DNA of 64,000 nt from Bacillota bacterium (GTDB lineage Bacteria; Bacillota; Clostridia; Christensenellales; CAG-138), in the NCBI GenBank assembly GCA_023390655.1, contig JAEWCL010000001.1, forward strand, positions 23,766 through 87,765, written 5' to 3'. This document shows, one piece after another, positions 15,256 through 16,122 of the stretch. Made by a program: the position numbers and the translations under genes. Within the stretch, counting starts at the first letter, position 1. Every line of letters begins with the position of its first letter. The notes under the pieces are model-generated. The model made no database searches and was not told the origin of the DNA. It worked only from the letters and a program-made list of their open reading frames with translations.

Positions 15256-16122
15256 TTATTTACCCATGGCCGCGGCAGCGTGCTCCACGAACATCTGCTG
15301 GATCGCTGTATTCTGGCCCAAGCCTTTCAGGACGCATTCCACCTCAAAGCCTGCGGCCTCGAAAACGGACTTCCAAGAATCCTCCTCATCGCCCGCCATG
15401 TCGTTGTTGGCATGGTCGCCCGCAACGATCATCAGCGGCAGAAGCACCACCTTTTTAGCGCCGCTCGCCTGCACAGAGGCCAGAACTTCCTCTACGGTCG
15501 GCTCGGCTTCCACCGTGCCGATAAAGTAGTTATCCTGCCCCGCATCGGTGAGCTTCTGCTGGAGCTTCGCGTAGGTGGCGTTGGCGTTATGTTCGGTGCC
15601 GTGGCCCATAAACACGATGGCCGTGCCATCCGCGTCGTAAGAAGCGGTGTCCGCCGTAATGGCGGAAACGACCTTGTCATAATCCGCATCTGAAATCAGG
15701 AGCGGCTCGCTGGTTTTGAAGCTCTTGAACTTGTCCTTATAGGGCGTAACTTCGGCGATCACATCATCGTACTCGTAGCCGCTCATCACATGGGTGGGCT
15801 GGATAACGACTTCCTTTACGCCGTCCGCAACAAGCCGATCCATGGCCTGGGTCACATTATCGATCTCGAGGTTATCGCGCTCCTTGAGCTTGTCGATAAT
15901 GATCTGGCTCGTAAAGGCGCGGCGCACCTCATATTCTGGGTAGGCGGCCTGGAGCACGTTTTCAATGGCGCCTATGGTGATGTCGCGGCTGTCATTATAG
16001 CTCGTACCGAAGCTGACGACCAACAGCACGGGTTTTGCGGCAGGTTTTGCCGCGCAGCCTGCCAATACGGGCATTACGAACGCAAGCGCCAGAATGAGGG
16101 CAAGGGTTTTGAGGTGTTTCAT
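15256..16122 (-). CDS. CbiK-type (sirohydrochlorin cobaltochelatase fold) protein carrying a lipoprotein signal, hence extracytoplasmic
   Basis: MKHLKTLALILALAFVMPVLAGC has a canonical LAGC lipobox. CbiK body LLVVSFGTSYNDSR, IQPTHVMSGYEYDDV, FMGHGTEHNAN. Confidence 0.8.
   Translation of the reverse strand: MKHLKTLALILALAFVMPVLAGCAAKPAAKPVLLVVSFGTSYNDSRDITIGAIENVLQAAYPEYEVRRAFTSQIIIDKLKERDNLEIDNVTQAMDRLVADGVKEVVIQPTHVMSGYEYDDVIAEVTPYKDKFKSFKTSEPLLISDADYDKVVSAITADTASYDADGTAIVFMGHGTEHNANATYAKLQQKLTDAGQDNYFIGTVEAEPTVEEVLASVQASGAKKVVLLPLMIVAGDHANNDMAGDEEDSWKSVFEAAGFEVECVLKGLGQNTAIQQMFVEHAAAAMGK

Follow-up and report, generated by a model that had tools for sequence, protein, structure and literature searches.

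A lipoprotein homologue of the chelatase CbiK

We analyzed a 64,000-nt stretch of DNA from a Bacillota bacterium of the Clostridia (contig JAEWCL010000001.1; hereafter the window), in which a gene for a homologue of the cobalt chelatase CbiK, provided with a lipoprotein signal, stands as the first gene behind a cobalamin riboswitch and next to a divergent operon for vitamin B12 (B12) biosynthesis. The gene and its functional positions are the following:

15256..16122, minus strand: lipoprotein CbiK homologue of 288 amino acids (open reading frame, Pfam match, alignment and AlphaFold2 (AF2) model)
16122..16057, minus strand: CbiK signal peptide, residues 1-22, a classical lipoprotein signal
16056..16054, minus strand: CbiK lipobox cysteine, Cys23 (LAG followed by C23)
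15603..15601, minus strand: CbiK H174
15510..15508, minus strand: CbiK E205
15414..15412, minus strand: CbiK H237

An initial annotation of this stretch, made from the letters alone, had described the product as a CbiK homologue that starts with a signal peptide and a lipobox, and both parts of this description were confirmed. The gene lies on the minus strand, a plus-strand reading of the same interval being ruled out by a translation riddled with stops, and its ATG is preceded at a distance of 9 nt by a good ribosome-binding site (GGAGGA). The encoded N-terminus reads MKHLKTLALILALAFVMPVLAGC; the signal, MKHLKTLALILALAFVMPVLAG directly followed by the lipobox Cys, contains a pair of Lys, a hydrophobic core and L-A-G-C as its lipobox. 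The remainder of the protein matched the Pfam family CbiK (PF06180) end to end, with residues 33-286 on model positions 3-261 of 262 (E 2.3e-89, 299.7 bits, gathering score 26.2). A lipobox together with a hydrophobic N-terminus was encountered in 95 of 112 homologues from related loci and a signal peptide without the Cys in 5 more, while homologues of at least 60% identity carry the lipobox in almost all cases. Because this N-terminus is so widely kept, the signal peptide is no chance feature, and the protein is predicted from its sequence to be extracytoplasmic and lipid-anchored.

With regard to the active site, the protein matched in sequence the CbiK of Salmonella enterica (1qgo; E 2e-56, 43% identity), FetB of Porphyromonas gingivalis (9b86; E 1.7e-47, 36% identity) and CbiK(P) of Desulfovibrio vulgaris (2xvx; E 4.9e-41). 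The segments PTHVMSGYEY and FMGHGTEH, which had been pointed out initially as belonging to the metal/tetrapyrrole site, are present at residues 109-118 and 171-178, and the alignment to S. enterica CbiK that had been proposed as a check places H174, E205 and H237 on His145, Glu175 and His207, and F38 on Phe10. His145, His207 and Phe10 are functional residues of the S. enterica enzyme, in which Phe10 adjoins the central metal of the bound ring (PMC4063343). The AF2 model of the window protein (predicted local distance difference test score (pLDDT) 88.8) shows the two-domain alpha/beta chelatase fold and superimposes on 1qgo in Foldseek with a template modelling (TM) score of 0.94 and a root mean square deviation of 1.7 A. 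Among the related Clostridial sequences described below, F38, H174 and H237 are invariant in 91 of 91 domains and E205 in 90 of 91, all tandem copies included, and a comparison with biosynthetic CbiKs revealed none of the clade-specific pocket residues that could have been a sign of a new substrate.

Riboswitch control and the partners of CbiK

Six genes on the minus strand make up the uptake operon, in the order CbiK, sm1, sm2, binding lipoprotein, permease and ATPase. Its leader and the genes that follow cbiK are listed here:

16506..16535, minus strand: promoter-like site of the uptake operon, TTGACA-18-TATGCT with TG before the -10 (consensus match only)
16310..16496, minus strand: cobalamin riboswitch aptamer RF00174, full length (57.4 bits versus gathering 31.5)
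16197..16219, minus strand: terminator-like hairpin with a run of seven T (sequence inspection)
14690..15172, minus strand: sm1, lipoprotein of 160 amino acids, PT-rich linker plus NEAT-fold domain (AF2 model, fold matches)
14179..14685, minus strand: sm2, 168 amino acids, secreted and paralogue-like, signal peptide at the N-terminus and transmembrane anchor at the C-terminus (sequence only)
13025..14173, minus strand: substrate-binding lipoprotein, Peripla_BP_2 (likely start ATG 14173, lipobox FTAGC)
11975..13000, minus strand: FecCD/BtuC-type permease of a type II ATP-binding cassette (ABC) importer (profile match)
10863..11990, minus strand: ABC ATPase with a C-terminal extension of ~115 amino acids (profile match)

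The RF00174 aptamer (E 1.3e-11, model positions 1-189) reads from 16496 to 16310 directly 5' of cbiK, in agreement with the B12 control that had been suggested initially, and the hairpin at 16197..16219 likely represents the expression platform of the riboswitch. This arrangement is not peculiar to the window: an RF00174 element was found directly 5' of cbiK in 11 of 18 sampled related loci and, cut by the contig end, in one more, the operon of the remaining sampled loci beginning further upstream or at the contig edge. The whole genome holds just two RF00174 copies.

The second of these lies outside the window (contig C26:24367-24566, minus strand, locus L136; 81.9 bits) and precedes a multi-pass membrane protein of 164 amino acids for which no Pfam or NCBIfam match was obtained. 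This protein may be an unrecognised component of a cobamide transporter, for instance one resembling the S-component of energy-coupling factor (ECF) transporters.

For sm1, the AF2 model (pLDDT 89.9) retrieved NEAT or Shp heme domains as nearly all of its 33 best fold matches in the PDB, with IsdX1 (3sik, E 1.4e-4), Hbp2, IsdA and IsdC at the top. Residues Y49, M59 and Y141 of sm1 are invariant. Related loci keep the sm2 gene next to the genes of sm1 and of the binding protein. Neither sm1 nor sm2 matched Pfam, its NEAT models included, or NCBIfam, and sequence searches of the PDB with both returned nothing. The binding lipoprotein gave no BtuF match in family and PDB searches and appears as a generic Peripla_BP_2 protein apart from weak matches to heme binders, namely IsdE (TIGR03659, E 7.5e-5, far under the cut-off) and, as the one marginal match in the PDB, Lmo2184 (5joq, E 9.5e-4). 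The permease has BtuC as its best NCBIfam match (198 bits versus a cut-off of 334), and the ATPase matches the 'corrinoid ABC transporter ATPase' model PRK09536 (402 positions) over residues 12-343, again under the cut-off. Owing to their lipid or transmembrane anchors, all four extracytoplasmic components are membrane-tethered. No heme oxygenase, anaerobilin-type or other heme-degrading gene was found in the uptake operon.

The C-terminal extension of the ATPase (window 10863-11213, minus strand) is perhaps common to PRK09536, which aligns through residue 343.

A truncated B12 pathway

The divergent neighbour of the uptake operon is headed by a leader of its own and comprises the following elements:

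16559-16588, plus strand: promoter-like site before the cbi/cob operon
16590..16668, plus strand: AdoCbl-II riboswitch heading the cbi/cob operon (37.3 bits versus gathering 36.5)
16727-16751, plus strand: terminator-like site before the cbi/cob operon
16755..30658, plus strand: cbi/cob operon of 15 genes (cbiD, F, G, H, J, ET, A, cobT, U, S, C, cbiB, cobD, cbiP, cbiC)

The two leaders thus stand back to back in window 16189-16757, a classical cobalamin aptamer for uptake versus a short AdoCbl-II element for biosynthesis, and the same pairing was observed in two related loci (L036 and L086). A further riboswitch of the window, a Na+ riboswitch (RF03071, 54.6 bits; 51731-51782, minus strand), is distant from the cbiK locus.

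The cbi/cob operon had initially been described as consisting of 14 genes and lacking a cytoplasmic chelatase. The count has to be corrected to 15; the absence of a chelatase stands, and the operon contains no cbiK or cbiX, no cbiL and no SUMT. The same is true of the whole assembly (3.7 Mb, 27 contigs, 91% complete), in which searches with the Pfam CbiK and CbiX models and by tblastn with a small CbiX recovered no chelatase besides the window gene, which is the sole CbiK homologue of the genome, as had been stated for the window. A census of the TP_methylase family returned five proteins, CbiF, CbiH and CbiE in the window and RsmI and YabN elsewhere; as all five are otherwise assigned, neither SUMT nor CbiL is present in the assembly. 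Moreover, when the cluster cbiL / hemA-sirC / hemC / cobA-hemD / hemB / hemL / small cbiX of a module-bearing Sporobacter genome was used as a source of tblastn queries, the only hits were cross-hits to CbiF/CbiH and generic aminotransferases, and no NAD_binding_7/SirC protein was found by tblastn. By profile census and tblastn, the assembly is hence without HemA, HemB, HemC, HemD, SirC, SUMT and CbiL.

The pathway from CbiH through CbiP is intact, so that everything from ring contraction to the nucleotide loop is retained. On the 91%-complete assembly, the organism is therefore predicted to be unable to make any tetrapyrrole macrocycle. A cytoplasmic placement of the window CbiK between SUMT/SirC and CbiL does not agree with what was found, namely a lipoprotein signal and a genome without SUMT, SirC and CbiL.

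We also considered the CbiM of this genome as a B12-linked cobalt transporter and rejected it. The sole CbiM homologue is a CbiM-PDGLE fusion of 335 amino acids, encoded beside a HypB/CobW-family GTPase (contig C16:101222-103171) with no RF00174 element nearby; given the PDGLE fusion and the HypB-like neighbour, it is probably an importer of nickel and not of cobalt.

A conserved module in Clostridia

In a collection with one genome per species, 484 related exported-CbiK loci were detected, 80 of which were examined in detail. Among these 80, the same type of importer is present in 66, sm1 or sm2 in 67, and at least two ring-contraction genes lie within 10 kb in 52. The cbi genes of the latter are on the same strand as the module in 26 loci, often with overlapping junctions (e.g. 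ATPase-cbiA), and divergent as in the window in 25. Isolates carrying the module include Harryflintia, Youxingia and Anaerotruncus; Harryflintia acetispora DSM 100433 and Youxingia wuxianensis NSJ-64 are examples without SUMT. The 84 Clostridial sequences in a phylogenetic tree constitute a single clade (support 0.79, stem 0.45), to which the second, cytoplasmic CbiK copies that some of these genomes possess (32-43% identity) do not belong; its sister group contains FetB and CbiK(P) along with two cytoplasmic CbiKs.

Two variations on the gene order were observed. Three loci (L060, L078 and L090) have an exported CbiK behind a different FecCD/ATPase pair (~30% identity to that of the window), divergent from a cbi operon, and no sm1, sm2 or binding protein after CbiK. 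In a Syntrophomonas module, the sm1 and sm2 genes are separated by a group II intron (L029:2448-4305, plus strand; RF02005 with 150 bits, RF00029).

The state of the upper pathway was determined with curated CbiL and SUMT models in 70 module-bearing genomes, most of the comparison genomes being metagenome assemblies. Both genes are present in 20 of the 70 and both absent in 25; 22 are without SUMT and have CbiL, and 3 show the reverse, which amounts to 47 genomes without SUMT and 28 without CbiL. The asymmetry of 22 versus 3 (binomial p 1.6e-4) fits a pathway that is lost step by step, beginning at its top, and would not be generated by random assembly gaps. In addition, a complete 2.44-Mb chromosome (G048) is devoid of both SUMT and CbiL. 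Of 20 genomes tested further, all encode CbiF, 15 have no other chelatase of the two types searched for, CbiK and CbiX, and 14 have no CbiM.

Domain architecture gave a further indication of the function. CbiK and sm1 are fused in at least 15 related loci, and the CbiK domain is tandemly duplicated in three, both of which argue for a tetrapyrrole relay. In addition, a lipoprotein of 975 amino acids (L081:18-2945, plus strand) has three CbiK domains followed by one sm1 (NEAT-like) domain, with His/Glu/His in all three.

In Faecousia and relatives (L061, L068, L074, L075, L076 and L085), CbiK-sm1 fusions have a decayed signal peptide (MNRFAKEVCT...) and head cbiA-C-D-F-G-H operons with no importer nearby; without a signal, their NEAT-fold domain would be cytoplasmic. 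SUMT and CbiL are present in 5 of 6 such genomes, SUMT being found in 18 of 64 others (Fisher p 0.013). A second variant was observed on the complete Christensenellaceae chromosome OY762936.1 (L051:9899-10816, plus strand), where the N-terminus of a CbiK belonging to the exported clade is not hydrophobic. There, sm1 and sm2 are missing, a riboswitch-like leader, the binding protein, the permease and the ATPase are retained, and the genome is without SUMT and CbiL. As both variants are nested within the exported clade, they are secondary internalisations. Both retain the catalytic residues, which fits a conserved job in chelation rather than mere binding.

A model for surface metalation and uptake of B12 precursors

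The initial annotation had not touched on the absence of cbiL, SUMT and the hem genes, on the partners with a NEAT fold, on the domain fusions and tandems or on the large conserved Clostridial module. Together with the export signal and the intact active site, these results suggest a model, to which we would give an even chance of being correct, in which the window CbiK, lipid-anchored on the outer face of the membrane of a single-membrane cell, is a surface class-II cobalt chelatase and receptor for early isobacteriochlorin precursors that feeds a NEAT-like relay to the importer. As the genome retains ring contraction from CbiH on and nothing upstream, the likely substrates would be pre-corrin isobacteriochlorins. 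Among the options that had been put forward initially, cobalt insertion outside the cell and the scavenging of precursors are accordingly favoured, and corrinoids as the likely substrate are not.

Under this model, scarcity of B12 would lead the riboswitch to permit transcription of the operon, and the surface CbiK would capture an early planar isobacteriochlorin-type B12 precursor released by other microbes. Since cbiL is absent, this precursor would be at the level of factor III / precorrin-3 in the organism analyzed here, and at that of sirohydrochlorin in relatives that retain cbiL. CbiK would then insert Co2+, or hold an already cobalt-loaded form via the same His/Glu/His site, and the cobalt tetrapyrrole would be handed to the NEAT-fold sm1 and to sm2 and from these to the binding lipoprotein, whereupon the type II ABC importer would bring it into the cell, where it would enter the truncated pathway at CbiH. 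NEAT domains hold metallo-tetrapyrroles by an axial ligand to the metal, so that metalation before the hand-over would be the logical order.

Several observations weigh against this proposal. The homology of the importer, with its BtuC-closest permease and corrinoid-ATPase-like ATPase, fits a cobamide cargo equally well. The window protein scores below the cut-off of the NCBIfam equivalog for sirohydrochlorin cobaltochelatase (NF047852, EC 4.99.1.3; 273.7 bits versus 400), and its invariant metal-site residues are as compatible with metal-dependent binding as with catalysis. The clade node has moderate support (0.79). What the substrate is has been deduced from pathway gaps, and the genes concerned (cbiL, hem, SUMT and small cbiX) are gathered in relatives within a single cluster of ~9 kb, for which reason one missing contig could hide all of them; this is mitigated by the same SUMT/CbiL gaps in two assemblies of the same genus (G041 and G060) and in one complete chromosome. 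The 20 of 70 genomes that have both SUMT and CbiL indicate that the module is not confined to auxotrophs and, being apparently ring-competent, that it is perhaps an accessory route for salvage or cobalt entry and not solely a rescue of auxotrophs. Finally, the model presupposes that factor II/III or their cobalt complexes are obtainable in guts and digesters, which is an assumption.

Alternative explanations

The main rival explanation is the capture of finished or late corrinoids (cobamides, cobinamide, cobyric acid) at the surface, with the CbiK fold as a non-catalytic or metal-ligating receptor that feeds a BtuFCD-type importer, i.e. a Gram-positive counterpart of the BtuG/BtuH accessories of Bacteroides. 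B12 uptake is classically recognised by a B12 riboswitch before a type II ABC importer, and the relatedness of the permease to BtuC and of the ATPase to the corrinoid model points in the same direction, as do the tandem CbiK domains, which resemble multivalent receptors, the seemingly complete upper pathway in 20 of 70 genomes and the transporter of the Desulfovibrio cbiK-cbiL-btuCDF locus, which has been annotated as B12 uptake (Rodionov 2004, PMC545781). Nevertheless, such capture leaves unexplained why CbiH through CbiA are intact in genomes without SUMT, CbiL and hem genes and why the module is so tightly linked to ring-contraction genes. CbiF was found in 20 of the 20 genomes tested, as compared to ~30% of Firmicutes that are predicted producers (PMC6461909), so that plain auxotrophs are not among the organisms in which the importer was seen. 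Moreover, signal-less variants are found within cbi operons alongside SUMT and CbiL, the catalytic residues and the pocket are the same as in the biosynthetic enzymes, the binding protein has no match to BtuF, and the second riboswitch of the genome precedes another candidate transporter. On this evidence we regard corrinoid capture as unlikely, while giving it a substantial place beside the precursor model.

An exported CbiK could also bind Co2+ as such at His/Glu/His and deliver it to a cobalt importer similar to BtuF, a precedent being CbtJKL of Sinorhizobium meliloti, a riboswitch-controlled, BtuF-like ABC importer of Co2+ (PMC7689651). The lack of CbiMNQO in most module-bearing genomes is in line with this idea. 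Free cobalt in the cytoplasm would, however, be useless for B12 synthesis in the 15 of 20 genomes in which no cytoplasmic chelatase of the CbiK or CbiX type was found, the NEAT-fold partners and fusions indicate a tetrapyrrole ligand, and invariance extends to Phe10, which adjoins the metal at the centre of the ring, and to the SFGTS loop, all of which renders the capture of cobalt ions improbable.

The handling of heme or another metalloporphyrin in an Isd-like uptake system under B12 regulation, after the manner of FetB/IhtB or CbiK(P), whose heme-related roles had been mentioned initially, found no support here. FetB (E 1.7e-47) and CbiK(P) (E 4.9e-41) are indeed the nearest exported relatives, sm1 has the NEAT fold, and the weak matches of the binding protein are to IsdE and Lmo2184. 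On the other hand, it is a cobalamin riboswitch that is conserved before the module, genes for a heme oxygenase or of the anaerobilin type are missing from the operon, there is a physical linkage of the module to cbi genes, and the Clostridial clade is separate from both FetB and CbiK(P). Furthermore, the residue of CbiK(P) that is said to bind heme, His96, aligns with Asp119 of the window protein, and Asp is found at this position in 79 of 84 clade members. A role in heme handling thus appears quite improbable.

Last, that the protein is an ordinary biosynthetic chelatase, with a non-functional N-terminal extension or acting before its export and with upstream gaps that are gaps of the assembly, would agree with its 43% identity and canonical active site relative to S. 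enterica CbiK, the 91% completeness of the assembly and the signal-less clade members in cbi operons, and is nonetheless highly improbable in view of a lipobox conserved in ~85% of homologues, co-transcribed partners that are exported or membrane-anchored, the same gaps in congeners and in a complete chromosome, and the nesting of the signal-less forms in the exported clade, which marks them as secondary losses.

Implications

Extending the precursor model beyond the window, we tentatively propose, with somewhat less than even confidence, that in many Clostridia of guts and digesters the cobalt insertion of anaerobic B12 synthesis has become extracytoplasmic, that sirohydrochlorin/factor III would be shared goods and possibly a cobalt carrier, loaded with cobalt by a surface CbiK and taken up by NEAT proteins and an ABC importer, and that, step by step, the hem genes, SUMT, CbiL, cytoplasmic chelatases and cobalt transporters could thereby be lost.

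Trade in B12 and its precursors is of key importance in the communities of the gut, the rumen and digesters, and genome-based predictions now label organisms of this kind as 'producers' or 'incomplete'. If the proposal is true, about two thirds of the module-carrying species rely on neighbours for the macrocycle and are not independent B12 producers, and sirohydrochlorin-type compounds are exchanged between cells. Cobalt could then arrive in cells pre-chelated, which would constitute a new route of cobalt entry, and a new class of B12-precursor auxotrophy would have to be recognised. The NEAT fold would likewise gain a function beyond heme uptake, and exported CbiK proteins a physiological role that has been in question since CbiK(P) and IhtB.

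Comparison with known systems

The S. enterica CbiK (1QGO/2XWP) is the best match in both sequence and fold, with His145, Glu175, His207 and Phe10 conserved. It differs in being cytoplasmic and free of a signal peptide, and within a complete pathway its step comes between those of SUMT and CbiL.

CbiK(P) of D. vulgaris (2XVX/2XVZ; TM 0.93) is, like the window protein, an exported CbiK with intact metal-site residues. It is reportedly a functional cobaltochelatase and is said to bind heme between its subunits through the above-mentioned His96. In contrast to the window protein, it occurs as a soluble protein in the periplasm of a bacterium with two membranes, an additional cytoplasmic CbiK and the full pathway; it has neither NEAT-like partners nor a lipid anchor, and it belongs to another branch of the tree. 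Its locus, cbiK-cbiL-btuCDF, includes a type II ABC importer under a B12 element (PMC545781).

FetB/IhtB of P. gingivalis (9B86, ihtABCDE) shares with the window protein the features of a surface lipoprotein with the CbiK fold (TM 0.91) and an adjoining ABC importer. FetB inserts Co and Mn into porphyrin in vitro and has no reverse activity on hemin (PMC13065792); the accessible text of that study makes no mention of B12-riboswitch control or of a link to cbi genes. The protein resides in the outer membrane of a heme auxotroph and is tied to heme/protoporphyrin handling and a TonB receptor. With 36% identity, it lies outside the Clostridial clade.

The uptake operon also resembles the Isd/NEAT relay (IsdH/B, IsdA, IsdC and IsdE-IsdF; IsdX1 of Bacillus anthracis; Hbp2-Lmo2184 of Listeria) in the order from receptor through NEAT carriers and a binding lipoprotein to a type II permease. 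That relay is under iron control, as opposed to a B12 riboswitch here, and relies on sortase anchoring, as opposed to lipid or transmembrane anchors. In the present operon, moreover, no heme-degrading enzyme is present, and the first component has a chelatase fold and is not a NEAT hemoprotein receptor.

A search of the literature did not find a Gram-positive CbiK lipoprotein module described with respect to NEAT partners, fusions, linkage to ring contraction or loss of SUMT/CbiL; a Dehalobacter paper that was checked concerns CobN and CbiZ, a different system. On the side of physiology, the closest concept is that of the 'tetrapyrrole precursor salvagers', Firmicutes with corrin-ring and nucleotide-loop genes that have lost early steps and need to take up a precursor (Shelton et al. 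2019, PMC6461909). They are defined by lost steps from the synthesis of 5-aminolevulinic acid (ALA) up to uroporphyrinogen III (UroIII) and were validated only for ALA, and the accessible text of that study makes no mention of a transporter, an exported chelatase or an entry after SUMT/CbiL. Exported CbiKs and precursor salvagers are hence already known; the mechanism that would connect them in the present model is, if proven, new.

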